Origin: an uncultured Chlamydiaceae bacterium
GTDB taxonomy: Bacteria; Chlamydiota; Chlamydiia; Chlamydiales; JAAKFR01
Direction of reading: 5' to 3'
NCBI GenBank assembly: GCA_942490925.1
Contig: CALNYX010000017.1
Span: 888,143 to 952,142 of the forward strand
Length of the DNA stretch: 64,000 bases
In this document: positions 745-37,966 of the stretch, one piece after another
Numbering within the stretch: the stretch's first letter is position 1
Layout of the letters: every line of letters begins with the position of its first letter
Notes under the pieces: generated by a model
The model's input: only the letters and a program-made list of their open reading frames with translations
The model's database searches: none
What the model was told of the DNA's origin: nothing
Position numbers and translations under genes: made by a program

Positions 745-1979
745 AAGAAGTTCTTCACCGCATTTTTCTCAAAAACTGGCCACGCAAGCTTATTGCACTT
801 ATCTCAGCTGTCGTTGTTTGGTTTCTGGTGAACGAGACAATCACCATCACGCGCACGATTCCCAATGTACCTGTTAGAGTGATCAATCTCTCTGCCGATA
901 AAACGGTCATTGGATTACTGCCGACCGGATTTTTGAAGTATCGCGTCTCCATTACTGTCACGGGAATGAAATCAACTGTCAATGAACTGAGGCCTGGTGA
1001 TCTAGAAGTTGTCATCAATGCGGAGGGTAAAACTGAGAGTTGGATTGCTTCTGTAGACAAGCAGGATCTGGTCAACCTCTCAGAGGATAACAAAGAGTGG
1101 CGCAAAGCAATCTCAACGGTTACAGCAAACGATCTCTATATCAAACTCAGTAAGCTTGTGACTGAGGAAATCCCTCTTACCATCAATAAGCCTATTGGAG
1201 ATCCACCAAAGGGATACCAATTCCTAGACATTTGGCCAAAATATCTCACGCAAAAAGTGAGTGGCCCTCAGGAGCAGGTTGCAGCCCTTAAGGAACACGG
1301 ACTTGAAGTTACATTTAACCTCAGTCGAATTACAAAATCTGAACTAGATACTTTAAATAGCTCTTCACAAACCGATGAACTGAGCTTCTTTGTCCCTGAA
1401 GCATGGAAGATGGTTGCGCTTCCTTTCAAAGATAACATTCAAGAGCCATTCAATGATCCACGTGCCAAGTTACTGCGCATTGATTTTCTTAAGCAGGAAT
1501 TGATTCCACTCGGCGTTGAACTGCCAATCACAATCTTCTTCCCTGTGAAGTATAGCCGGACCATTAATCCGCAAACCTACTCCCTTGCAACAAATCAGAT
1601 TGTAGAGAAGAAAAGTGGATTAAAGTTATTAACCATTCCTCTCTATGTCAGAGATGTAAGCCGTCTGTTTCTCGATGTTGTGCGCGATAACTTGCTGCTG
1701 ACTATCATTGCTACGCCACAGAGTGTACAAGAGCCTCTGAACTGGGCGATTGAATTTATTGATGAAAAAGCTCTCGAAGATGCGTATGTTGCCGCTTCGT
1801 TGAAGGAGATGGAAAAGACACACAAAGAGAACGAGTCTTTCTCGCAATATAATGAGCGGGCCATTCGCTTCCGATTCCGTGACTATTTGCGGCATCTTGA
1901 TCTCTTTACAGAAGATGGTTCTGCCTTAGAGCTTCAAGCTGAACTCGGCGGGAGCACCATTAAGCTAGACACAAAATGA
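741..1979 (+). CDS. ybbR: YbbR-domain protein (CdaR-like partner of the cyclase)
   Basis: ATGA overlap with dacA. It has an N-terminal TM helix (LIALISAVVVWFLV). Beta-rich segments (VPVRVINL...ITVTGMKSTVNELRPGDLEVVINAEG) look like YbbR repeats. Confidence 0.7.
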   Translation: MKEVLHRIFLKNWPRKLIALISAVVVWFLVNETITITRTIPNVPVRVINLSADKTVIGLLPTGFLKYRVSITVTGMKSTVNELRPGDLEVVINAEGKTESWIASVDKQDLVNLSEDNKEWRKAISTVTANDLYIKLSKLVTEEIPLTINKPIGDPPKGYQFLDIWPKYLTQKVSGPQEQVAALKEHGLEVTFNLSRITKSELDTLNSSSQTDELSFFVPEAWKMVALPFKDNIQEPFNDPRAKLLRIDFLKQELIPLGVELPITIFFPVKYSRTINPQTYSLATNQIVEKKSGLKLLTIPLYVRDVSRLFLDVVRDNLLLTIIATPQSVQEPLNWAIEFIDEKALEDAYVAASLKEMEKTHKENESFSQYNERAIRFRFRDYLRHLDLFTEDGSALELQAELGGSTIKLDTK

Positions 1980-7643: not shown

Positions 7644-10600
7644 ATGATTGTTCTAAAAAAGGTCTCGGTTCATAACCTCAAAAAGGTCAACCTTACACTC
7701 AAGCCAGGTGAGTTGATCCTCTTTACGGGCGTCTCTGGCTCTGGCAAATCCTCCATGGCCTTCGACACCATTTTTGTCGAAGGACAACGGCGCTACATCG
7801 AATCGCTCTCCTCTTTTGCCCGCCGCTATATCGGAGACATGAGCAAACCTGATGTCGAATTTGTCGGTGGACTCTCCCCAACCATCGCAATCGAGCAGAA
7901 GAGCGCTGGTAAAAATCCTAGATCGACAGTCGGAACACTCACTGAGATCTATGACTTTCTCCGTGTGCTATATGCCAGAGTTGGCACTCCCTACTGCCCA
8001 GAAACGGACGAGCCTGTAACCACGCAGAGCAAAGAACGGATCATCAAAAAGGTTCAAAAACTCCCTGAAGGTGGACGACTTGTCTTTCTAGCTCCCTATG
8101 CAAAAGATAAAAAGGGTGAGTTCAAAGAAGATTTTGCTTTCCTACTCAAAAAAGGCTTGATGCGCGCTCGGGTCGATGGCAACTTTGTCGATCTGAGCGA
8201 AGAGATCTCACTAGACAAAAGTCTGACGCATACAATTGATGTGGTGATCGATCGACTCAAAGTCTCTTCTGAAAATCAAACGCGCCTTGCTGAAGCAACG
8301 CTGCACGCTCTTGAAATCGGAAAAGGGATGTTCAGCATCTACGATATGGAGACCAAAGAGGAGGTGCTCTATTCAACGCATGCCTACTCCAAAAAAGCGG
8401 GCGTCTACTACTCCTCTCTTGAACCTCATGATTTTTCCTTCAACAGCCCCTCAGGCATGTGTCCCACCTGCCTTGGCTTGGGAGAGACAAAAACCTTTGA
8501 CTTGAACCTCATCCTTGACCCTGAAAAGAGCATCTCTGAAGATTGTTGTCTCATCGGCGGTAACTTCAACACGGTGCGCTACAGCAATATCTACCGCAAT
8601 TTGTCAGAACTCTACAACTTTGATCTCGATACTCCGTGGAAAGATCTCTCGAAGCGAGCCCAAAACATCTTCCTCTATGGAGTGAAAAAGAAGTGGCTTC
8701 AGATGCACTTTGTTCACCCAACACGCCCAGTGAGTTGGACTGACTATGTTGCCTGGCGTGGTGTTGTGCATGAAGCACAAAAGCGGTACTCTGAGGCCAA
8801 AAGTGATCTCTATCGGAAGAAGATGGAGCAATTGATGCACCATGAGCGCTGCCCCGACTGCCTCGGTGCGCGCCTCAAAGCGTATCCTGCTGCTACGCGA
8901 CTGGGAAGCAAAAAGATTCATGAATTGACCGCCTTGACAATTGAAGAGCTCACCACGTTTTTTGACACGTTGAAGCTCGATGCAACTGAGCAGGTGATCG
9001 CAGAAGAGCTCTTGCTTGAGATTCATAAAAGACTCCGCTTTTTGAAAGAGGTTGGCTTGCACTACCTCTCGCTTGATCGTACAGCGCCCACACTTTCAGG
9101 AGGAGAGGCGCAACGTGTGCGACTCGCCTCTCAAATTGGCTCGGGACTTGTGGGTGTGACCTATGTGCTCGATGAACCTTCCATCGGGCTGCATCCACGC
9201 GATAATCAGAAGTTGATCACAAGTCTCAAACGGCTACGGGATGTAGGCAACACGGTGATTGTCGTTGAGCATGATGAAGAGACGATTCGAGCGGCTGATC
9301 GGATCGTTGATTTTGGCCCAGGTCCAGGAACAAAGGGAGGAAAAATCCTCGTTAACGGTACACAAGAGGAGCTACTGGCTCACCGCGAATCCCTCACTGC
9401 TGACTACCTAACTGGAAGAAAGCGGATTGAGATTCCCAAAGAGCGACGTGAGCCAGAGGGTTTTCTCACACTTGTTGGCGCCACACATCACAACCTGCGT
9501 AACTGTACGGCCAAAATCCCGTTAGGAGTAATGGTTGCTGTGACGGGTGTTTCGGGCTCTGGAAAATCTTCGTTGATCATCGAGACTCTTTACCCAGCTC
9601 TTGCCAATCATTTGCACAATGCTGAGCATGTCGTTGGCAACTATGAGACGCTCGAAGGGCTTGAGCAGATCGACAAGGTGATTGCCATCGACCAATCGTC
9701 AATCGGAAAGAATCCCCGCTCCAACCCCTCAACCTACATCAAGATTTTCGATGAGATTCGCTCTCTTTTCTGTCGCCTGCCTGAGAGTCAAGCGCGCGGC
9801 TATCAACCTGGACGCTTCAGCTTCAACGTGCGTGAAGGCTCCTGCCCCCGTTGTGAGGGAATGGGCATGGTGCGTGTCGACATGGACTTTTTGGAAGATC
9901 AATGGGTCGTCTGCCCTAACTGCCAGAACAAACGTTTTGATCCTGAAACTCTCTCGATCTACTACAAGGGAAAGAATATCCATGATGTCCTAGAGATGAC
10001 AGTTGCCGAGGCTCTGGCCTTTTTTGCCAACATTCCAGCTCTGAAAAGAAAGCTCGTTCTGCTTGAAAAAGTTGGCATGGATTACATGACCCTTGGACAA
10101 GCCTCTACAACGCTCTCGGGTGGAGAGGCGCAACGCATCAAGCTTGCCAAACAACTCGTGCGTCCTCCTTCAGGAAATACACTCTACATCTTGGATGAGC
10201 CTACAACAGGATTGCATTTCCATGATATTCAGGCGCTACTCAAAGTGCTCAATGAACTTGTTGCCCGCGGAAATACGGTGCTTGTCATCGAACACAACAT
10301 GGACGTGGTCAAAACAGCTGACTGGGTGATTGATATAGGCCCTGAAGCAGGAGCTGCAGGAGGTGCTGTTGTTGCAGCTGGCACTCCAGAAGTTGTCGCA
10401 AAACAGAGCTCTCCAACAGGCATCGCAATTGCCGAAGCACTGCATCCACAGCTGCATGAAACTCCAACACCTATACATGTAGAAACATCCCCCTACCATG
10501 AAATTCAGATAAGCGGCGCCGCGCAAAACAACTTAAAACACCTTGAATTGCAAATTCCACGTGGTGCGATTACTGTCTGCTCAGGTCCTTCTGGATCGGG

Positions 10601-13178
10601 AAAAAGCTCGCTTGCATTTGAAACGGTCTATGCCGAAGGACAACGCCGCTACATCGAATCGCTCTCCCCCTATGCGCGTCAGTTTGTCCGTCAAATGCCC
10701 AAGCCAAAAGTGGGACATATCGAAGGACTCTCCCCAGCTGTTGCCATTGAACAGAAGCTCTCTGCTGGAAATCCCCGCAGCACAGTTGGAACGCAAACTG
10801 AGATCTATGACTATTTGCGTCTACTCTTTGCCCAAGCTGGAACGGCCTACTGCCCCGAGACTGGAGAGGTGATCAAACGGATCACACCTGAAGATGTCGT
10901 GACCCATATTTTAGATTTTCCTCAAGGGGAGCGGATCACTCTGCTTGCTCCAATCAGTCTCGAGAAACAAGACTCCTTTGAAGAGCGTATCGCACACTTC
11001 CAAAAGATGGGTTTCTTGCGCATTCGTTTGAATGAAACGCTCTATGAGCTTGATGAAACGATCTCGTTTGATCGGAAACGGAAAAATGAACTCGCCCTTG
11101 TCATCGATCGTCTCAAGGTGGATCCAGATAATCGCTCGCGGCTATTTCAGGCTGTTGAGAGTTGCGCAAAAATGGGCAATGAGAAAATTTTGGTGATGCG
11201 TGGTGATGGGAAAGATCAGCTCTTCAACCTTGCTTTTGCGGTGGAAAAAACAGGAAAATCCTACCGCAAGATCACGCCTCACACGCTCTCTTTCAATAGC
11301 GCTGAGGGAATGTGCCCCGATTGCCAAGGGTTGGGGTATCAATATGGCGCAAATCTCATGCAGAACCAAGCCGTGATGGAACACTCTTTGCGCGGTCTTT
11401 TGCGCACGATTTGGACGCATGATTCCCTTCCATTTTTTGAAACCTTTTTGGGAAAAAAGGGAATCGACTTTGACCTCCCCCTTGAAGAGTTGAGCACTGA
11501 TCAGCTCCAGTTGATTTTCAATGGATCTGATGAGCTGATCACGACAAAAAGAGGTTTTGCCTGCAAATGGCTCGGGATTCAACCGATTTTAGCGCGCGCT
11601 GGAAAAGGAGCTCATCGCGAGATTAGAGCCCCGCTTATTCCCCTGCTTGATGAGATCGAATGTTTCTCTTGTTTGGGCTCCAGGCTCAATCCCCTCGCAC
11701 GTAATGTACGCATTGAAGGACACTCCATCTCCTCTGTTTGTCAACTACCTATTGAAAAAGCTCTCCCTTTCATCGAATCGCTTGAAACTCCCACGCTTCT
11801 CGATGAGGTGATGAAACAACTCAAATCTCGCCTCCGTTTTTTGATAACCGTCGGTCTCAACTATCTCACGCTCGATAGGCGCGCTCCCACCTTGAGTAAT
11901 GGAGAAGCCCAACGGATTCGCCTTGCCAGACAGCTCGGCAGTGAGTTGACAGGCGTTCTCTATGTTCTTGACGAACCAACAATCGGCCTCCATCCACACG
12001 ACAATGAGAAACTCAACGGCGCTCTAAAACAACTCAAAGCCCTTGGCAATACCTTGCTCATGGTTGAGCATGATCCGCTCACACTTGCCATCGCCGATCA
12101 CCTGATCGATTTTGGCCCAGGCGCCGGCATCCTTGGAGGACACATCACGGCGCAAGGCACCTATGAGGAGATTTGCAACAATCCCAACTCTCTGACTGGC
12201 GACTATTTATCAGGCAGAAAAACCATTGATATTCCACAAACAAGACGCAGTCCAAAGGGGTATTTTAGCATTGAAAATGCCTGCAAACACAACTTGAAGA
12301 ATCTAACTCTTGAGTTTCCCATAGGCGTGATGAGCTGTTTAACAGGCATTTCAGGTTCTGGAAAATCAACCTTGATGCACGCTGTGATCAAACCGATGAT
12401 CACTCCCCTTGTGGCAAAAAAAGAGCCTTTCAACAAGCTCATTGTGATCGACCAAAATCCGATTGGTCAAACTGTGCGTGCAGACGTGGGAACCTACAGT
12501 GATGTGCTTCCTGTCTTTCGTCAGTTTTTCTCTCAACTAGGAGCTGCACGCACCAAAGGATTGCAACCAAGACACTTCAGCTACAATCACAAAAAAGGGA
12601 TGTGTACCAACTGTTGGGGACTAGGCTATAAAAAGGTCGAAATGCTCTTTCTTCCTCCCGTGAAAGTGACGTGTGATCAGTGTGAGGGAATGCGCCTTAA
12701 TCCTGTCAGTCTCACCGTTGACTATCAAGGGATGCACTTTGGCAACTTGTTACAATTGACCATCGAAGAGGCGCGTGCTCAGTTTGAGCTCTTGCCAAAA
12801 GCCCAGCGCATTTTAGATACACTCATCTCAGTTGGACTCGGCTATTTAAAATTAGGCCAAGAGATCGCATCTCTATCTGGAGGAGAAGCGCAACGGATCA
12901 AACTCTCTCGAGAGCTTGCGAAGCGTGGCACAGGCAAAACACTCTATCTACTTGATGAGCCAACAACAGGGCTCCATGCAGATGATGTGAAGAAGCTTCT
13001 CGCTCTACTCCAACGTCTTGTAGAAAAGGGCAACACCTGTATTGTGATCGAACACAACGTTGATGTGATTCGCACAGCCGATCATGTCATCGACCTTTCA
13101 GATGGTGCCATTGTAGCTCAGGGGACACCTGAGGAGATCAAAAAGGTGCCACACTCTTTGACAGGAAACTATCTTTGA
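7644..13178 (+). CDS. uvrA: excinuclease ABC subunit A, tandem-duplicated (two complete UvrA modules in one ORF)
   Basis: There are two full sets of UvrA hallmarks: 4 Walker A loops ([36 protein letters not shown]), 4 [16 protein letters not shown] signatures and CxxC zinc modules in each half. The second module restarts at [14 protein letters not shown] near nt 10500. Confidence 0.95.
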
Positions 13179-17166: not shown

Positions 17167-20100
17167 ATGGAAGAACTACCCAAAGCTTACGATCCTAAGC
17201 TCACCGATGTCAAATGGTCCCAATTTTGGGAAGAGAATGGCTTTTTTAAAGTCGACCCCACATCTGACAAACCAGCCTACTCAATTGTCATTCCCCCTCC
17301 TAATGTCACAGGTGTGCTCCATATGGGACACGCTCTTGTCAACACCCTTCAAGACATTCTGATCCGCTGGAAAAGGATGAGTGGCTACGAAGCATTGTGG
17401 ATGCCAGGAACCGACCATGCCGGCATTGCCACACAGACTGTTGTTGAACGTCATCTGATGCAGAGTGAAGGAAAAAGACGGAGCGACTACGATCGAGAGG
17501 TTTTTCTCAAACATATCTGGGATTGGAAAGAGAAGAGCGAAACAACGATCCTCAAACAGCTCAAAAGTCTCGGTTGCTCATGTGATTGGTCAAGACTCCG
17601 TTTTACCCTGGATGATGGCTGCAGCCTAGCTGTTCGCACCATGTTCAAAAAACTTTTTGATGAAGGGCTGATCTACCGTGGCGACTACCTTGTCAACTGG
17701 GATCCAGTCACTCAAACAGCCCTTGCTGATGATGAAGTCGAATACGAAGAGCGTGAGAGTTATCTCTGGTATTTCAAATACCATCTCGTCGATGGCTCTG
17801 GCTATGTGCATATTGCCACGACACGCCCAGAAACCCTTCTTGGTGATACAGCCATCGCCGTCTCCCCCAAAGATGAGCGTTACAAGCATTTGATCAACAA
17901 AAAAGTGCGCGTTCCATTTGTCGATCGCGAAATTCCCATCATTGCTGACCCCTACGTCGACCCTGAGTTTGGAACAGGCATGGTCAAGATCACTCCTGCC
18001 CACGATCCAAATGACTACAAGATTGGTCTCAATCACAATCTGCCCATGATCAATGTGATGACAACTGATGGGCGCATGAATGAGAATGCTGGCCCCTTCC
18101 ATGAAATGAGCCGTGAAGAGGCAAGGGAAGCTGTTGTTCACCAGATGAAAGAGCTTGGGCTGCTTGATAAAACAGAGCGCTACAGCTTGCGCGTTGGGAT
18201 CTCCTACCGCTCTAAAGCAATTATTGAACCCCTTCTCTCTAAGCAGTGGTTTGTCAAGATGGAGTCGTTCAAAGAGAAGCTTAGAGCAGCTGTCAATGAT
18301 GAGCGGGTCAAGATTCTGCCACCCTCTTGGAAACAGACCTATTTCCACTGGATCGATAACCTGCGTGACTGGTGCATCAGTCGACAACTTTGGTGGGGAC
18401 ATCGCATCCCCGTTTGGTACAACAAAGAAGATCCAACGCAGATGCGTTGCTCCACAGAAGAGATCGATGATGAAATGTGGGAGCAAGATCCTGACGTACT
18501 CGACACCTGGTTCTCTTCAGCCCTATGGCCCTTTAGCACCATGGGCTGGCCCAACAAAACTCCTGAGCTTAAAAAGTTCTATCCCAACAGCGTGCTTGTC
18601 ACTGGACATGACATCCTCTTTTTCTGGGTAGCACGCATGATTGCAATGGGAGAGCACGCGCTTGACAAAGTTCCTTTCCCTGAAACTTTCCTCCATGGCC
18701 TCATCTATGGCCGCTCCTACTGGAGAAATAATAGCGATGGAAGTATCACCTACGTCGCTGGCGAGGAGAAAAAGCAATATGATCTTGGCAAACAACCTCC
18801 AAAAGAGGTGCACTCCAAGTGGGAAAAACTCTCCAAGTCAAAAGGCAATGTCATTGATCCTCTCGAGCTCATCGACGAGTATGGCACCGATGCTGTGCGC
18901 ATGTCCCTCTGCGCCTGTGCCAACCAGTCTCCACAAATCGACCTCGATCGCAGACGGTTTGACGAATTTAAAAACTTCGCTAACAAAGTGTGGAATGGTG
19001 CCCGTTTTGTCTTCATGAACCTCTCTGACCTGACAGACAGCGAGCTCGACCAAAACTTTGAGCTTGCACTTGAAGACAAATGGATCCTCTCTGCAATGGG
19101 ACGCGTCAATCGGCAAGTCAATGAGAGCCTCTCCAACTACCACTTTGATCAAGCTGCTCAACTCTCCTACGACTTTTTCTGGAAAGAGTTTTGCGCCTAC
19201 TACGTTGAATTTTCTAAACCGATCCTCTTTGGTGACGACAAAACAGCTCGCAAAAACAAACAGAAAATCCTTGCTACTGTGCTGAGCAATAGCATCCGTC
19301 TTCTACACCCGATGGCACCCTTTATCACAGAAGAGCTCTACCAACTGCTTAAAAAGCAGTTTCCCTCTCTTCTTCCTGAGCCAGCTTGCATTGTTGCCCC
19401 CTACCCACAAGCATTGCCAGAGGATGAAGCAATCCATGAGCAGTTTGCGCACATTGAGAAAGTGATCTACACCATCCGAAACATCCGCGGCGAGATGAAA
19501 ATTCCTCCACATATCGCTACAGATGTCTATCTCATTGGCAATTTCCCGCAAGAGCAGACCAGACTCATCGGCGCACTTGTCAAGACAACCCAAATCATTT
19601 GCACCGACAAAGCTCCAGAGTTTCCGCTCAGTGCAACAGGCGTTGTCGGAGAGCTTACCATTCTCATTCCACTCCCTCAGGAACTTGCTGATAAAGAGAA
19701 GCAGCGGCTTGAGAAAGAACGCGAGAAGCTTGAAAATAGCCTCGCTCGCCTCAAACAGTTGCTCGACAACCAGGACTTTCTTGCCAAGGCAGCTCCTGAG
19801 TTGATTGAGAAGAAAAAAAGCGAGCTGAGCTCCACTCAAAATGAACTCAACAGCTTGAATGCTAAATTAGTTGTGAATAAATACACCTTCAAACCCTACA
19901 ACGCTCAATACCCCCACTTGTTTGCTGTAGAAAAATCTCGTCTTACTGAACATATCCAAGCCGACATTCAACATGTTGGCAGCACAGCAGTTCCGAACCT
20001 AGGCGGAAAAGGAATTATTGATATTGCCATAGCAACCGAGAGTATTGAAGAAACCTCAAAGCAACTAGAGATGTTGGGATATGAATTTCATAAAAATGGG

Positions 20101-20343
20101 AGTACAGCTGAGCGGTTATTTTTCCGCAAAGGACACGAGTATCACATCCATTTGATGCACCCTAACAGTCAAGAGTTAAAAGATCTGATTATTTTCAGAG
20201 ATTTGCTCAAAGCAGATCTAGAAGTTATGCAGCAATATGCTGAGATCAAAAAACGCGCAAATGGGAATAAAACGCTCTATCGAGAACTTAAAAAGCAGTT
20301 GATTGAGCCTACCCTTTCCTTCTGGAGAAGGAAAGCACCATGA
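17167..20343 (+). CDS. valS: valine--tRNA ligase fused in frame to a C-terminal GrpB-family domain
   Basis: Class I HIGH (HMGHA) and KMSKS-like (KLSKSKGN) motifs, a ValRS editing/CP1 region and a C-terminal coiled coil ending ...LNSLNAKL. About 158 aa of GrpB-like sequence follow with no stop (HVGSTAVPNLGGKGIIDIAI, HIHLM, FRDLLKAD). Confidence 0.9.
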   Translation: MEELPKAYDPKLTDVKWSQFWEENGFFKVDPTSDKPAYSIVIPPPNVTGVLHMGHALVNTLQDILIRWKRMSGYEALWMPGTDHAGIATQTVVERHLMQSEGKRRSDYDREVFLKHIWDWKEKSETTILKQLKSLGCSCDWSRLRFTLDDGCSLAVRTMFKKLFDEGLIYRGDYLVNWDPVTQTALADDEVEYEERESYLWYFKYHLVDGSGYVHIATTRPETLLGDTAIAVSPKDERYKHLINKKVRVPFVDREIPIIADPYVDPEFGTGMVKITPAHDPNDYKIGLNHNLPMINVMTTDGRMNENAGPFHEMSREEAREAVVHQMKELGLLDKTERYSLRVGISYRSKAIIEPLLSKQWFVKMESFKEKLRAAVNDERVKILPPSWKQTYFHWIDNLRDWCISRQLWWGHRIPVWYNKEDPTQMRCSTEEIDDEMWEQDPDVLDTWFSSALWPFSTMGWPNKTPELKKFYPNSVLVTGHDILFFWVARMIAMGEHALDKVPFPETFLHGLIYGRSYWRNNSDGSITYVAGEEKKQYDLGKQPPKEVHSKWEKLSKSKGNVIDPLELIDEYGTDAVRMSLCACANQSPQIDLDRRRFDEFKNFANKVWNGARFVFMNLSDLTDSELDQNFELALEDKWILSAMGRVNRQVNESLSNYHFDQAAQLSYDFFWKEFCAYYVEFSKPILFGDDKTARKNKQKILATVLSNSIRLLHPMAPFITEELYQLLKKQFPSLLPEPACIVAPYPQALPEDEAIHEQFAHIEKVIYTIRNIRGEMKIPPHIATDVYLIGNFPQEQTRLIGALVKTTQIICTDKAPEFPLSATGVVGELTILIPLPQELADKEKQRLEKEREKLENSLARLKQLLDNQDFLAKAAPELIEKKKSELSSTQNELNSLNAKLVVNKYTFKPYNAQYPHLFAVEKSRLTEHIQADIQHVGSTAVPNLGGKGIIDIAIATESIEETSKQLEMLGYEFHKNGSTAERLFFRKGHEYHIHLMHPNSQELKDLIIFRDLLKADLEVMQQYAEIKKRANGNKTLYRELKKQLIEPTLSFWRRKAP

Positions 20344-24909: not shown

Positions 24910-25701
24910 TTATAGAGGATCTGCTTGAGCTGCTAAGTAGCCACCATTTTCATGTAACGGATCTTTGCACCAGCCTCGTAGGAATTGATTCGGAAAGATA
25001 TTGATGCCAAAGTCCGCTACAGTATTGCTTTTTCTGTCGACATAGCCCCAGAGCTGTTTTTTATCAGGTAAATCTTTTAAATAGATATCGAGCTGGGTTG
25101 ATTCAGCAACTAAGTTTTCTTGAGAAGAAAATAGCAGCTCCATAGCTTCTTGACTCTCTTTATTATATGACTCAAATCTCCCAAGGCGTTCTCTGATTCT
25201 CCAAAAAAAGCCTGTGCATAGATACTTTTTATTAACAGAGACATCAGATAAAGTTATTTTCCAAAGTTCCCATGCTTCCACATATTCTTGAGGCTTTTGC
25301 TGCATTTCATTCAAATAATGGATGACAAAGTTCAAGTTATATTGATGATTCAAAAGCGTACAAAATTCAGTAACAATTGAGAGCAGGTTTTGAGCAGGAA
25401 CTTCAGCTTTTTCTTGATAGTCAATGGAGAGCTTTTCTTCAGAAAAGAGGTCTGTCAAAAATTGTTCAAAACTCAAATAGTTGACAGGTTTGGTAGCATA
25501 GAAAATAGCCTCTGCCCATTTCTCATACTCTTCAGCCTCCAAACAAATTAAACCTAAAAAAAGCCTGTGCGATTCATATGCATTAATTTCTGACGCAAGG
25601 ACATCCCTACAAATAATTGGACTCAGGCGACTTAGAAAAATCATGCCGATATTAAAACTTTGTAATGGAGTTACAAAATCTTGGGAGTGTAATTCTGTCA
25701 T
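24910..25701 (-). CDS. hypothetical protein (263 aa), AT-rich orphan
   Basis: Long uninterrupted ORF with no signal peptide or TM segment and no family recognised. Sampled 60-nt lines are visibly more AT-rich than the flanking genes. Confidence 0.5.
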   Translation of the reverse strand: MTELHSQDFVTPLQSFNIGMIFLSRLSPIICRDVLASEINAYESHRLFLGLICLEAEEYEKWAEAIFYATKPVNYLSFEQFLTDLFSEEKLSIDYQEKAEVPAQNLLSIVTEFCTLLNHQYNLNFVIHYLNEMQQKPQEYVEAWELWKITLSDVSVNKKYLCTGFFWRIRERLGRFESYNKESQEAMELLFSSQENLVAESTQLDIYLKDLPDKKQLWGYVDRKSNTVADFGINIFPNQFLRGWCKDPLHENGGYLAAQADPL

Positions 25702-34853: not shown

Positions 34854-35476
34854 GTTTGAAATAGAATCTCACGAAAATCTTTACGGATATACCGACCAAG
34901 CAGCTCTTTGAGCGCTTCATCACTCAAATCAAGCGTAAGCTTGCGATCCAATAACTTAAGCTGGACTCCGCCAGCAAACTCACCTATCTCTACACTCTGC
35001 CCCTTTAACTTCTGCACAATTTCTTTAGCTAACAGCGCATTCACCTGCTCGACTGTCACTGTTTTTGCAACAACAGCTGAAAAGTCTGCGCTAGTTCCTT
35101 CTTTTTCAATAGCTTGCGCCAAAGCTGTAATCAGATTTGCGCTAACTTTTGGATCAACCGTCTCCTTTTCAATCCAATCCATTAGACTGCTGTTAAGGAG
35201 TTTGTTCTCTATATCTTGCCTCAACGATTCAAGGATCTGCTGACATGCTTGAACCAACGTACTGTTGAACAATTTTTTTTCATCTTCAATCTTTTTACGC
35301 GCCCCATTGATGAGTTGCTGCGCTTTTTCTTCAGCTTCGCGCAAAAGGCGTTGACTCTTTTCTTGCGCCTGTTCAAGAATTGCAGCTGCTTCATGCTTAG
35401 CAGGTTCAATAGTTTCTGTTTTCAGAATCTCACATATTTTTTTGATTTTGTCTTTGCCTGTATCGACTGAATCCAT
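34850..35476 (-). CDS. atpE: V-type ATP synthase subunit E
   Basis: First gene of the operon. It has a long N-terminal charged helix (AAAILEQAQEKSQRLLREAEEKAQQLI) and a globular C-terminal domain. Confidence 0.8.
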   Translation of the reverse strand: MDSVDTGKDKIKKICEILKTETIEPAKHEAAAILEQAQEKSQRLLREAEEKAQQLINGARKKIEDEKKLFNSTLVQACQQILESLRQDIENKLLNSSLMDWIEKETVDPKVSANLITALAQAIEKEGTSADFSAVVAKTVTVEQVNALLAKEIVQKLKGQSVEIGEFAGGVQLKLLDRKLTLDLSDEALKELLGRYIRKDFREILFQT

Positions 35477-35554
35477 TATGGTGAACCTCTTTGTACGTTA
35501 GAGCAACAGGGTGTCAGAGAAATCTAAAAAATTCAAGGGATTTTCGAGGTCACG

Positions 35555-36022
35555 ATGCGTTTCATTTTTACACTACTTTTTTTCTCTTCAGTTGGATTTG
35601 CCAATTTTACGTTTATTCCACCAAAGGGTTGGGATTGCGTTCAAGATCGCGATCAGCTCCCAAAAAAAGTTCAAGTTGTTTATATTGGGACAGGTAACGC
35701 CAATTTCATGCCCTCGCTTAACCTTGCCGAAGAGCCTGTTACGATATCATTGCGCGAGTATGTCTCCGCCGCCAAAACCTACCATGAAGCCGAACCCGAG
35801 ACGGCTTGCCGCGAACTTGGCACAATCAAAACAAAGGCAGGCAATGCACACGTTCTACAAATCGATCGAAAGACAGGTTGGGGCGATGTACGGTTCATTC
35901 AAGCAACATTGATAGTCAACAACATAGCTTATGTAATTACAGGCACCTGTTTAAGAGATGAGTTCGGCACATTTTGCCCTGCTTTCTTCGAAGCGATACA
36001 AACGTTTGATGTTGAGAGATGA
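35555..36022 (+). CDS. secreted hypothetical protein (possibly PsbP/DcrB-like fold)
   Basis: Signal peptide MRFIFTLLFFSSVGFA, then F.PPKGW..V, reminiscent of DUF1795/PsbP-type proteins (weak). GAGG lies 5 nt upstream of the ATG. Confidence 0.5.
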   Translation: MRFIFTLLFFSSVGFANFTFIPPKGWDCVQDRDQLPKKVQVVYIGTGNANFMPSLNLAEEPVTISLREYVSAAKTYHEAEPETACRELGTIKTKAGNAHVLQIDRKTGWGDVRFIQATLIVNNIAYVITGTCLRDEFGTFCPAFFEAIQTFDVER

Positions 36023-36101
36023 AAAAAGTTTGTACAGGAAATATAAATTTTACTAGAATGACACTTAAGCATAAAAAACATATGCAACCACGGAGAGACC
36101 A

Positions 36102-36389
36102 ATGAAAAAAGCAATCTCATGTTTATCGATCTTAGCACTGCTTGCTGGACCATTCGCTAACTTTGCATTTGCGGATGAAGTAGAAGTTTCTGAAACTGTA
36201 GAAGCGCCTACATACGTCACACTTCCAACAGACAACGCACTTGCTGCAAATGATAACTACTATAGCAGCCCAGCTTACGAAAGTGGCACATTTATGGGTA
36301 TGAACTGGATTAAATGGGGCCTATTGTTAGGTGCTATTGGTGGTGCAACAGCAATTGCTGTGACGCACAACACAAGCAACTCCCATTAA
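36102..36389 (+). CDS. small tail-anchored secreted/membrane protein (95 aa)
   Basis: Signal peptide (MKKAISCLSILALLAGPFANFAFA), an acidic middle, a C-terminal TM segment (WGLLLGAIGGATAIAV) and a short polar tail ending NTSNSH. GGAGAG lies about 6 nt upstream of the ATG. Confidence 0.5.
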   Translation: MKKAISCLSILALLAGPFANFAFADEVEVSETVEAPTYVTLPTDNALAANDNYYSSPAYESGTFMGMNWIKWGLLLGAIGGATAIAVTHNTSNSH

Positions 36390-36425
36390 TCTAATTGAGG
36401 CACCGAGAGTTATCGAGGAATTGAG

Positions 36426-36908
36426 ATGAAGAAAGTTATTGCGTTGTTGTCTATGCTCTTAATGTGCAGCAACAGCCTGTGTGCCGCTAGTGACACTTTT
36501 ATAGACTACCAAAACTACAATCATGGTTACTGCCCTGATTGTAGTTGCTATCCGTGTCGTTGCGACTCACATCCTTGTTCAGATCCAAACCCATGCTCTC
36601 AGTGCCCTAATGGTTCTTGCCCCCAAAACACAGACGGCCCCTATCCGATGCAACCACCTCCATGTCCTCCAGGGGCATCATGTGGAAGTTGCAACGAGTC
36701 GTCCCCTTGTGGCCAGCCTGCTTGTAGCTCTTGTCCTACTCCATGTTCACCTTGTAGTTCACCGTGCCAAGATCCTTGTGATCCTTGCGCTCCAGTTTGT
36801 GGTACAGATTGCGGAATATCAGTTTGTGCGATTGGAGTTGCAGTTGCTGCAGTTGCAGCGGCAGCAGCCATTATCATTGCCTCTTCTAATGGATCTGCTT
36901 CTCACTAA
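36426..36908 (+). CDS. Cys/Pro-rich tail-anchored protein (160 aa)
   Basis: Signal peptide (MKKVIALLSMLLMCSNSLCA). The ectodomain of about 100 aa has about 23 of the protein's about 25 Cys (two more lie in the signal peptide) and about 23 Pro, with recurrent x-P-C units. A C-terminal TM segment (VCAIGVAVAAVAAAAAIIIA) is followed by the tail SSNGSASH. GAGG lies 7 nt upstream. Confidence 0.6.
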   Translation: MKKVIALLSMLLMCSNSLCAASDTFIDYQNYNHGYCPDCSCYPCRCDSHPCSDPNPCSQCPNGSCPQNTDGPYPMQPPPCPPGASCGSCNESSPCGQPACSSCPTPCSPCSSPCQDPCDPCAPVCGTDCGISVCAIGVAVAAVAAAAAIIIASSNGSASH

Positions 36909-36949
36909 ACATTGCCAAAAATCCACTCTTCAGTAAGAATAGTTCACCT

Positions 36950-37399
36950 ATGATCTATTTACTTATGCTCTTATCCCTATTTTGTAGTTGCAGACACCCC
37001 AATTGCTGGGAGTGTCAGGAGATGACTAAAACGGCTCAAGAGCACCGTTCTGCTCGCGTCACGTTTACCCCTGACAGCACATTTTGTACTCTCCAATTAG
37101 AGTTATTGCAGGGAGAGTTTGGTACTATTGGTTATCTAAATACTGTACGAGGTAATTTGCCACCGACTGACAAAGTCACCATTGCAATTGGTGAAAAGAT
37201 CAGTATTGTGGACGGGATTCGTTTAGAGGGCAATCAAAAGATGCGTCTCCCCGACCAGGCGACAGAGCTGATTATTGATTCGCTTTTAGAAGAGAAGCAA
37301 ATCAAGATTATTCTGCAGAACTACCATGTTCAGGTTGAACCTGATTCCAAGCATCGGCATTTAGTCCATCGCAGCAAGCGCTTCCGCGACATCTTCTAA
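36950..37399 (+). CDS. hypothetical protein (149 aa), possible lipoprotein
   Basis: The hydrophobic N-terminus MIYLLMLLSLFCSC is a weak lipobox. No family recognised. Confidence 0.4.
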   Translation: MIYLLMLLSLFCSCRHPNCWECQEMTKTAQEHRSARVTFTPDSTFCTLQLELLQGEFGTIGYLNTVRGNLPPTDKVTIAIGEKISIVDGIRLEGNQKMRLPDQATELIIDSLLEEKQIKIILQNYHVQVEPDSKHRHLVHRSKRFRDIF

Positions 37400-37594
37400 T
37401 CTAATCAACAAATATGCAAATGTCGATTTGCTGCTTGGAAATCGTCAAGACCTAAGTCGCTAATTTGAAATCGCAACATTTTTTGTTTTTTGTTCCAGTT
37501 GGACGATCTCGAGTGCGGCTAGTATAAGCGATACAGCGAGCGAGAGATCGTTCTAACGGGCAAAAAGGCAAAAAATCCCCCCAAGTCTGTGCTA

Positions 37595-37966
37595 TCAGTG
37601 ACTTGCAAGTGCCTCTGGCACGTCGCGTAGAGGCTCGACTCTGAATGCTATTTGGAACAGCTCGCCCTGGACATTAAGTTCGATGACTGAACTTAAACGA
37701 GTTAATAGAAGATTAAACGGCACCTTCACATGATGTGATCCCACATCAATCGCCACAGCTGTCTTCCCTAAAATCTTATGCGATTCATGAATCTGACGGC
37801 AGAGCGCTTCAAACTGTTGCAGCTGACCGAGCATCTCCTCATCAAATGCATACTTTTGACCACATTCACTGCAGCAAACGGTTTCATGCGTCTTATCAAG
37901 TACCGAGAATAAGATCGGCGATTTACATTTGTGACATTGAAACTGTAGACGATGCCCGACTTCCAT
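37595..37966 (-). CDS. hypothetical zinc-ribbon protein (123 aa)
   Basis: N-terminal CxxC...CxxC pair (CHKCKSP...CCSECGQKY). No family recognised. Confidence 0.45.
   Translation of the reverse strand: MEVGHRLQFQCHKCKSPILFSVLDKTHETVCCSECGQKYAFDEEMLGQLQQFEALCRQIHESHKILGKTAVAIDVGSHHVKVPFNLLLTRLSSVIELNVQGELFQIAFRVEPLRDVPEALASH

Follow-up and report, generated by a model that had tools for sequence, protein, structure and literature searches.

The rigidity of chlamydial infectious particles is explained in textbooks by disulfide cross-linked, Cys-rich envelope proteins, and the components of this cross-linked envelope are known almost only from Chlamydia. Here we describe two adjacent open reading frames, ORF1 and ORF2 (Table 1), in a 64,000-nucleotide stretch of contig CALNYX010000017.1 from an uncultured Chlamydiaceae bacterium (assembly GCA_942490925.1, positions 888,143 to 952,142), hereafter referred to as the window. 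An original prediction, made from the sequence alone, had described the pair as proteins with a signal peptide and a C-terminal anchor, the second being strongly enriched in Cys and Pro, and both ORFs were found with the coordinates and the shared architecture that it had claimed. In kind, ORF2 is a small Cys-rich envelope protein of a chlamydia; what is new is the family to which it belongs and the membrane module that this family carries.

The closest described protein is OmcA of Chlamydia. Like OmcA, the members of the family are small, Sec-exported and very rich in Cys, have no globular fold, contain CxxC units and the pentapeptide DPCAP, and may, by analogy, act as periplasmic disulfide cross-linkers in the infectious form, the role presumed for OmcA. 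However, OmcA is a lipoprotein with an N-terminal outer-membrane anchor, lacks a C-terminal helix and is encoded adjacent to omcB, whereas the family is characterised by a signal of the signal peptidase I type, a predicted C-terminal inner-membrane helix, a Pro-rich stalk and a DYQNYNHGYC head. Its genes are not adjacent to omcB in any locus; their neighbours are a V-type ATPase operon, a gene for a 155-aa protein, a lipoprotein gene, a Zn-ribbon gene and tal. BLASTP against OmcA sequences that had been verified by exact look-up detected no homology, hhalign against an OmcA alignment gave probabilities of 1.2% (alignment A1) and 2.8% (alignment A2), and none of the 48 aligned members matched PF03503 (Chlam_OMP3), even at E ≤ 10. 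Homology to OmcA was therefore rejected, as the original prediction had anticipated, and the common DPCAP pentapeptide is considered to be compositional.

When ORF1, ORF2 and the 48 aligned members were scanned against Pfam and NCBIfam, nothing meaningful emerged, and the only profile matches in the PDB, weak summed ones to designed Kelch repeats and to an antibody CH1 segment, were dismissed as chance (individual domain E-values of ~90). CYSTM proteins (PF12734), to which no Pfam match was obtained, are also small, their N-terminal part being rich in Pro and their Cys-rich segment lying at or within a helix at the C-terminal end, but they are eukaryotic and tail-anchored, with a cytosolic N-terminus and without a signal peptide, whereas the signal peptide of the chlamydial family is cleavable. 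High-sulfur keratin-associated and extensin-like proteins likewise consist of low-complexity Cys/Pro or Tyr/Pro repeats and depend on covalent cross-linking rather than on a fold; being eukaryotic, unrelated in sequence and not membrane-anchored, they provide an analogy only. No description of the motifs reported below, or of Cys-rich proteins of this clade, was found in the literature. Neither the libraries nor the literature that we searched contain a description of the family.

Tandem paralogues with a conserved C-terminal module

ORF1 and ORF2 have a common start (MKK.I..LS.L) and a common end, consisting of a hydrophobic helix, a polar tail and S-H. The resemblance, already remarked upon in the original prediction, exceeds what would be expected by chance. 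We constructed a hidden Markov model (HMM) of the conserved C-terminal region of the family (the C-module, composed of a juxtamembrane motif, a helix and a short tail), from which every window sequence and every ORF1-type sequence had been left out. This model recognised ORF1 with 19.4 bits (E = 2e-5), the next best ORF fragment of the window reaching E = 0.22. In ORF2, the signature P-x-A-P-x-(C)-G-(T)-x-(C)-G-[ILVM]-[SNT] of the C-module was likewise found with a leave-out HMM (49.5 bits, E = 7.8e-15). The aligned stretches are SPAYESGTFMGMNW in ORF1 and DPCAPVCGTDCGISV in ORF2, in which P-AYESGTFMGMN of ORF1 is the Cys-free counterpart of P-x-AP-x-CGTxCGIS, and in the family alignment the Cys-free paralogues still hold P..AP..G(T)..G ahead of the helix. 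As judged from these profile comparisons, ORF1 and ORF2 are diverged tandem paralogues, of which ORF1 is free of Cys and has kept only the C-module.

The composition of ORF2 is as extreme as had been predicted. The approximate numbers given at that time correspond to exact counts of 25 Cys, 23 Pro and ten xPC units, and the Cys residues that had been placed beyond the signal peptide, about 23, are accounted for by the 22 that the 110-aa ectodomain contains together with C134 at the membrane border, C14 and C19 lying in the signal peptide. Cys makes up 20% of the ectodomain, which has seven CxxC and five CxxxC spacings and only five large hydrophobic residues, in line with the claim that it almost lacks a hydrophobic core. 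With 25 Cys, compared with a family median of 12 and a maximum of 28, ORF2 is among the most Cys-rich members. AlphaFold2 (AF2), supplied with a 48-sequence family alignment, predicted helices only at residues 2-21 and 133-153, the latter with a predicted local distance difference test score (pLDDT) of about 80-87; between them it predicted neither an ectodomain fold nor any secondary structure (pLDDT 43-58). Tandem DNA repeats in ORF2 are restricted to two short ones, both within the Ala-rich helix, and therefore do not explain its low complexity.

A word-indexed search of 5.8 billion clusters returned 47 homologues of ORF2, the best being 47% identical, and a profile search of 1.84 billion proteins returned 79 cluster representatives at E ≤ 1e-3, nearly all of 70-200 aa. 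All named relatives of ORF2 are annotated as 'hypothetical protein' and come from metagenome-assembled genomes (MAGs) of uncultured Chlamydiales/Chlamydiota. The word-indexed search with ORF1 found only ORF1 itself; its relatives were obtained by tblastn within the loci described below, and they include orthologues in L002 (47% identity), L007 and L018. A search with the C-module profile for large cargo proteins added only seven small proteins. Two further candidates were set aside, P0120 (366 aa) as a spurious repeat hit and P0084 as a frameshifted fragment.

The family alignment resolves four parts, namely a signal peptide, a head in most members, a variable stalk and the conserved C-module. 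Signal peptide and C-module are common to all members found in the tandem arrays, the head occurring in only some of these. The end of the signal peptide is conserved as x-A-A before S/D, and C14 and C19 of ORF2 are not conserved (alignment A1), so that the signal of ORF2 is not of the lipoprotein type. The head begins at the mature N-terminus with the consensus (S/D)(D/N)TFxDYQNYNHGYCPxCxCxPCxC, in which conservation is 90% or higher at Y28, Q29, N30, Y31, H33, G34, Y35, C39, P43, C44 and C46; its Cys spacing, CxxCxCxxCxC, is retained in 50 of the 59 scored members. In P0060 (148 aa), two complete head modules stand in tandem (SNTFLDYQNYNHGYCPSCNC.PCSC, twice) ahead of the C-module. An otherwise unrelated 839-aa protein (P0111), encoded on a 12-kb contig of a JGI metagenome and giving no signal peptide, Pfam or PHROG hit, contains three copies of the head core GHCPxCDCSPCEC. 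Thus, the head behaves as a module, duplicated in one member and recurring as a core in P0111, and its presence three times in the latter orphan suggests that the CxxCxCxxCxC unit with its His may be an autonomous mini-domain used outside the chlamydiae.

The stalk, measured from the end of the head to approximately 14 residues before the helix, varies from 19 to 112 aa (median 44 aa; 82 aa in ORF2) and has a median composition of 28% Pro and 13% Cys across the family. Some stalks are poly-Pro/Ala sequences with few Cys, and that of the member in L012 is rich in Tyr, Pro, Asn and Gly. The longest architecture was found in L020 (4099-5760, + strand), where the signal peptide of a 553-aa member is followed by approximately six Cys/Pro repeats of 35 aa in tandem (CQPCGPMTSPGPCSPQGYPMSCESSGSCSQPCPMP), then by a region rich in Tyr, Pro and Gly and by a C-module with a natural His6 tail. 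In amino acid composition, the stalks of ORF2 and of the L020 and L012 members are like cross-linked structural proteins.

The C-module has the consensus (D)P(C)AP(V)CG(T)xCG[ILV][SNT]xC, followed by a small-residue helix and a tail of the type SSNGS..H(x)H. In the juxtamembrane part, C118, P120, A122, P123, C125, C129 and S132 reach a conservation of at least 90%, G130 being invariant. The commonest tail residue is His (24%), which occurs in 136 of 152 tails, K or R being found in 26 of the 152; the mean net charge of the tails is -0.17. Ten members, including ORF1, have no Cys or a single one. By its distribution in the alignments, the C-module, and not Cys richness, is the defining conserved element of the family. 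Head module and C-module together constitute a defined and searchable signature that is without a Pfam or NCBIfam entry.

Coding status and annotation of ORF2

ORF1 and ORF2 are both real genes. The original prediction had warned that composition alone might hold frames open here, pointing to an alternative-frame ORF at 36523-36936 and to an antisense ORF (Table 1). The view that ORF2 is not a gene, its frame being kept open merely by Cys/Pro/Ala codon composition, can indeed draw on the length of the alternative frames (the +2 frame of ORF2 is 83% open, and the antisense ORF extends over 78 aa) and on the fact that a public gene call picked the antisense frame. However, among 52 family genes the sense frame is the only one that is always open, each of the other frames being at least 80% open in 2-13% of the genes. 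The GC content at third codon positions (GC3) of ORF2, 0.35, is close to that of the window genes (0.43 ± 0.05), and the values at the three codon positions (GC1/2/3) of its alternative frames are atypical. The long alternative ORFs are therefore artefacts of composition, i.e. by-products of Cys/Pro/Ala codon usage.

Family-wide conservation of the motifs, synteny in 21 genomes and a Shine-Dalgarno-like site also speak against the non-gene explanation, as does selection. The ratio of nonsynonymous to synonymous substitutions (dN/dS) is 0.03-0.14, at dS of ~1-1.8, for orthologous pairs from L011 and L014, each contributing four genes, compared with 0.62 for a tandem duplicate of recent origin in L021. 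These values come from orthologue pairs elsewhere in the family and not from ORF2 itself, because a metagenome scan for near relatives of ORF2 returned none above 58% identity, so that dN/dS was computable only for other pairs. Lack of purifying selection, which had been named beforehand as a reason to abandon ORF2, is thus contradicted by the orthologues in the family. We regard the non-gene explanation as already refuted by the comparative data, with practically no probability left to it.

A public assembly (L022) is 100% identical to window positions 34987-37401. Its gene call contains a 76-aa antisense ORF at 1655-1885 (-), corresponding to approximately 36641-36871 of the window, and no + strand gene over ORF2. 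Furthermore, a collection of 15 billion proteins lacks the exact ORF2 sequence but contains ORF1, the neighbouring 155-aa protein, the Zn-ribbon protein and the transaldolase of the same 1,802,975-bp contig. Together, these two findings indicate that ORF2 probably has no annotation, or a wrong one, in the source record. The antisense call illustrates that genes of this kind can escape gene callers, and small Cys/Pro-rich envelope proteins are for this reason probably under-counted in MAG annotations.

Genomic setting and host lineage

A genome scan identified 21 loci, all in chlamydial MAGs, each containing a tandem array of 1-5 family genes. The syntenic order is a V-type ATPase operon (-), an exported 155-aa gene (+), the array (+), a 149-aa lipoprotein gene (+), a Zn-ribbon gene (-), transaldolase and rpoC; ORF1 and ORF2 occupy the array position between the ATPase operon with the 155-aa gene and the lipoprotein, Zn-ribbon and tal genes. 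In the window, atpE of the ATPase operon, on the (-) strand, ends at 35476. The intergenic gaps are 36-79 bp here, and the corresponding genes abut or overlap in other loci, which suggests that the segment 35555-37399 is one operon of exported proteins. In L025 and L026, the block of ATPase, 155-aa gene, family member and next gene is kept despite different downstream genes. P0124 (L024, 6001-6411), a weak member with only a C-module (E = 1.4e-4), lies at another chlamydial locus, flanked by two PTS EIIA genes on one side and an SSF transporter gene on the other; the V-ATPase locus is therefore not strictly the only place where the C-module occurs.

The chlamydial host proposed originally is borne out by a Chlamydia-like synteny, the window containing pyk, a gene for an 1844-aa UvrA, a protein kinase gene, valS, the V-ATPase genes, tal, rpoC and rpoB. 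We take this gene order to be comparable to the CT301-CT315 region of C. trachomatis. In all loci, RpoC is 80-88% identical to that of the window, from which we infer that they come from one fairly tight clade. Two of them (L001 and L019) belong to K940_chlam_9 and KR126_chlam_2, which are MAGs of Chlamydiae Clade IV (PMC11249467), a clade since renamed Ca. Sororchlamydiaceae and placed as the sister family of Chlamydiaceae (PMC9666466). As far as the homology searches reach, the family is confined to uncultured chlamydiae, including Ca. Sororchlamydiaceae. OmcA orthologues have been reported only in Chlamydia and Chlamydiifrater (PMC10448858), and the small Cys-rich partner of Chlamydia would thus be missing in the Clade IV lineage. 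The closest relative of the window in this analysis is L021 (CAMAUB010000053.1), in which the identity to ORF2 is 60% and that for the DUF2764 protein 75%. This record is titled 'Chlamydia trachomatis isolate MaH-04nov19-12', yet it contains the array locus and two family members, and its species label is almost certainly wrong.

Table 1. Features of the ORF1/ORF2 locus, in window coordinates
Feature	Position	Strand	Description	Basis
155-aa exported protein	35555..36022	+	First gene of the putative operon; signal peptide, alpha+beta	
Sigma-70-like promoter match TGTACA-17-TAGAAT	36031..36059	+	Weak (9/12 positions); upstream of ORF1	
Shine-Dalgarno-like GGAGAG	36092..36097	+	4 nt 5' of the ORF1 ATG	Read from sequence
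ORF1	36102..36389	+	95 aa, Cys-poor paralogue: signal peptide, acidic/aromatic ectodomain, C-module	
ORF1 signal peptide	residues 1-24		Ends ...FAFA, followed by DEV	
ORF1 C-module	36270..36386	+	P-AYESGTFMGMN, helix ~W69-V87, tail THNTSNSH	Alignment and leave-out HMM
Shine-Dalgarno-like GAGGA	36415..36419	+	6 nt 5' of the ORF2 ATG	Read from sequence
ORF2	36426..36908	+	160 aa, Cys/Pro-rich family member	
ORF2 Sec signal peptide	36426..36488	+	Residues 1-21; predicted cleavage at about C-A-A, before S	-3/-1 rule
ORF2 head module SDTFIDYQNYNHGYCPDCSCYPCRC	36489..36563	+	One His and five Cys, spacing CxxCxCxxCxC	
ORF2 low-complexity Pro/Cys stalk	36564..36770	+	Residues 47-115	
Antisense ORF	36641..36877	-	Not a gene; codon-position GC atypical	
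ORF2 juxtamembrane motif DPCDPCAPVCGTDCGISVC	36771..36827	+	Part of the C-module	Conservation in family alignment
ORF2 predicted transmembrane helix VCAIGVAVAAVAAAAAIIIA	36822..36881	+	Small-residue-rich	AF2 and family conservation
ORF2 tail SSNGSASH	36882..36905	+	Short, polar, non-basic; predicted cytoplasmic	
Predicted lipoprotein	36950..37399	+	149 aa; last gene of the putative operon; after the array in most loci	
Zn-ribbon-like protein	37595-37966	-	123 aa; two CxxC pairs, weak zinc-ribbon hits	

In all 17 loci with enough upstream sequence, the gene that separates the V-ATPase operon from the array encodes the 155-aa protein, with 37-61% identity, and the alignment of this protein (A4) contains 19 invariant columns, including PxxW, D..QLP and YH. 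Sequence comparisons gave weak PsbP_2/LpqN hints only, a PDB sequence search was negative, and a single-sequence AF2 model (pLDDT 52) produced non-significant matches to NTF2-like folds. Its homologue in L020 is enlarged to 452 aa by five or six Ser-rich tandem repeats after the signal peptide. The predicted 149-aa lipoprotein is 25-33% identical across 14 loci, its homologues having canonical lipoboxes such as LLSGC, LLTAC and LLPAC. The public call of this gene starts at an internal Met (~37022), by which the signal peptide is lost, and the exact 149-aa product was not found in the protein collection. The 123-aa Zn-ribbon-like protein is 49-71% identical across loci, and its gene is convergent with the array operon. 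The sigma-70-like match upstream of ORF1 is suggestive only, since such sites are no more frequent than in shuffled sequences, and nothing above background was seen when the region upstream of the operon was scanned for sigma-28, sigma-54 and sigma-66 motifs.

Elsewhere in the window, the product of valS (17167-20343, +) has a C-terminal GrpB domain (residues 909-1047), apparently by fusion, and the 1844-aa UvrA-like protein (7644-13178, +) has duplicated UvrA interaction and ABC ATPase domains. No Pfam match at E ≤ 1e-5 was obtained for the ORFs at 39073-40632 (-; 519 aa), which sits between tal and rpoC, and at 24910-25701 (-; 263 aa).

Possible roles in the envelope

In its account of the pair, the original prediction is supported in part: it was correct as to the host, the shared architecture and the distinction from OmcA, but it had missed the C-module, the CxxCxCxxCxC head and the tandem array found throughout the clade. 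With these elements included, the reading that we favour, plausible but tentative, is that ORF1, ORF2 and their relatives are bitopic (type I) envelope proteins anchored in the inner membrane, with a structural role in the periplasm based on disulfide cross-linking, as in the analogous proteins of Chlamydia. The proteins would be exported through the Sec pathway and the predicted signal peptide removed after A-x-A; the predicted small-residue helix near the C-terminus would then stop transfer and leave the mature protein anchored in the cytoplasmic membrane. In the resulting type I topology, the 8-aa, His-containing tail would lie inside and the ectodomain in the periplasm. Since the latter has neither a hydrophobic core nor a predicted fold, it may form a Pro-rich, extended and flexible stalk, with the CxxCxCxxCxC head at its tip and the second Cys motif close to the membrane. 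If oxidising conditions arise in the periplasm as the infectious form develops, as the behaviour of OmcA, OmcB and MOMP in Chlamydia would suggest, intermolecular disulfides could form with other copies and with the Cys-rich outer-membrane complex, and the inner membrane would be tied into a cross-linked periplasmic matrix. Cys-free paralogues of the ORF1 type would co-assemble through the conserved helix without taking part in cross-linking. The operon context supports an envelope role, as the neighbouring products, the periplasmic 155-aa protein and the lipoprotein, are exported.

Several observations weigh against this reading. Cys content is not invariant and, given the ten members with 0-1 Cys, the C-module that these share with the others must have a function other than cross-linking. 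The number of Cys in the mature proteins is unconstrained as to parity (51 even versus 31 odd), and the strict spacing and the His of the head would fit a metal site or a disulfide knot equally well. Anchoring in the inner membrane would also be unlike every known chlamydial Cys-rich envelope protein, and the tail does not have the positive charges that a stop-transfer anchor usually carries.

The fit of the head to a metal site leads to the proposal, also raised in outline by the original prediction, of a membrane-tethered periplasmic metal binder, in which thiolate clusters with Cu(I), Zn or Cd would form on the head and on the many CxxC/CxxxC units of the stalk, so that metals would be buffered or detoxified at the inner membrane. 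Metallothioneins (SmtA/BmtA and MymT as well as the eukaryotic ones) resemble the family in their high Cys content, CxC/CxxC spacings, absence of a hydrophobic core and a His near the Cys cluster. The exact Cys spacing and the conserved His in most heads, and the density of Cys and of CxxC and CxxxC pairs in the ORF2 ectodomain, agree with such a function; the three GHCPxCDCSPCEC copies in the unrelated P0111 would be expected of an autonomous small metal-binding knuckle, and the His-rich tails, up to the natural His6, hint at metal chemistry. However, known bacterial metallothioneins are cytosolic and have neither signal peptide nor membrane helix, whereas all family members have both, and the family is as Pro-rich as it is Cys-rich and lacks CC pairs. 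No metallothionein profile was matched at a meaningful score (the best was a single member with E = 7.3 to PF12749, Metallothio_Euk, and ORF2 gave none), Cys in the stalk are very variable in number and position, with long Cys-free stretches in some stalks, and an oxidising periplasm would disfavour thiolate clusters. The Cys-free paralogues, which carry the same C-module in the same locus, are also difficult to accommodate, and we consider a metal binder unlikely. In another reading, the C-module itself would be the functional core, its helix packing into a membrane complex as part of a small single-pass accessory subunit and the ectodomains being variable decorations. Over all paralogues, including the Cys-free ones, conservation is highest in the helix and its flanks, and the run of small residues (A/G/V/I) is of a kind that would pack tightly against other helices. 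The V-type ATPase encoded next to the array would offer a candidate partner in its K-ring or I subunit, by analogy with yeast Voa1 and mammalian Ac45 (ATP6AP1), the plugs of the eukaryotic c-ring, which similarly have a signal peptide, a lumenal (here periplasmic) domain, a single C-terminal helix in type I topology and a very short tail. The array is found beside the ATPase operon in every locus with enough upstream sequence, and in L025/L026 this adjacency outlasts a change in downstream synteny. Voa1 and Ac45 are eukaryotic, though, and the likeness drawn here is one of layout and of gene position; we know of no bacterial V/A-ATPase with a subunit of this type and, to our knowledge, Chlamydia has the same ATPase without this family. 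The two transcription units are divergent, with another gene intervening, and atpE-...-tal-rpoC is ancestral chlamydial synteny, so that the linkage may be inertia. In view also of P0124 at its unrelated locus and of a copy number of 1-5, which is odd for a stoichiometric subunit, we rate an accessory subunit as quite improbable.

The same separation of a constant C-terminus from variable ectodomains could be produced by a sorting or processing signal of the PEP-CTERM, MYXO-CTERM or GlyGly-CTERM type, with a dedicated enzyme cutting at P-x-AP-x-CGTxCG and attaching or releasing the ectodomain. A tripartite layout of motif, helix and short tail on unrelated ectodomains is the hallmark of such signals, and the C-module shares with these domains and with CGP-CTERM a conserved short motif, which here contains Cys and Gly, a hydrophobic helix and a short tail behind variable N-terminal parts. 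Nevertheless, none of the 48 members matched an NCBIfam/TIGRFAM CTERM model at E ≤ 10, the helix is followed by a His-rich tail and not by a basic cluster, and the carriers found in the profile searches are few, almost all small (mostly 70-200 aa, the 553-aa L020 protein being an exception) and mostly clustered at one locus, unlike diverse cargo spread over a genome. In addition, the conserved neighbourhood, approximately 12 kb around each locus, contains no candidate sorting enzyme. A sorting signal is thus very unlikely.

Returning to the inner-membrane-anchored, cross-linkable stalk, it is possible, although we would not call it probable, that a sister clade of Chlamydiaceae that lacks OmcA builds its envelope with tandemly amplified, inner-membrane-anchored, disordered Cys/Pro or Tyr/Pro stalk proteins, which share a new C-terminal membrane module with a His tail and undergo redox-switched cross-linking. 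If this is true, the cross-linked layer would be tethered from the inner and not from the outer membrane. In a bolder variant, in which the helix docks into the V-type ATPase, these proteins would be the first bacterial accessory subunits of the Voa1/Ac45 type. A Cys-rich family that is separate, conserved and under strong selection in a sister lineage, with what appears to be the opposite membrane anchorage, is a concrete candidate for how other chlamydiae solve envelope cross-linking, and it provides a handle on the change in the envelope on the way to animal pathogens.

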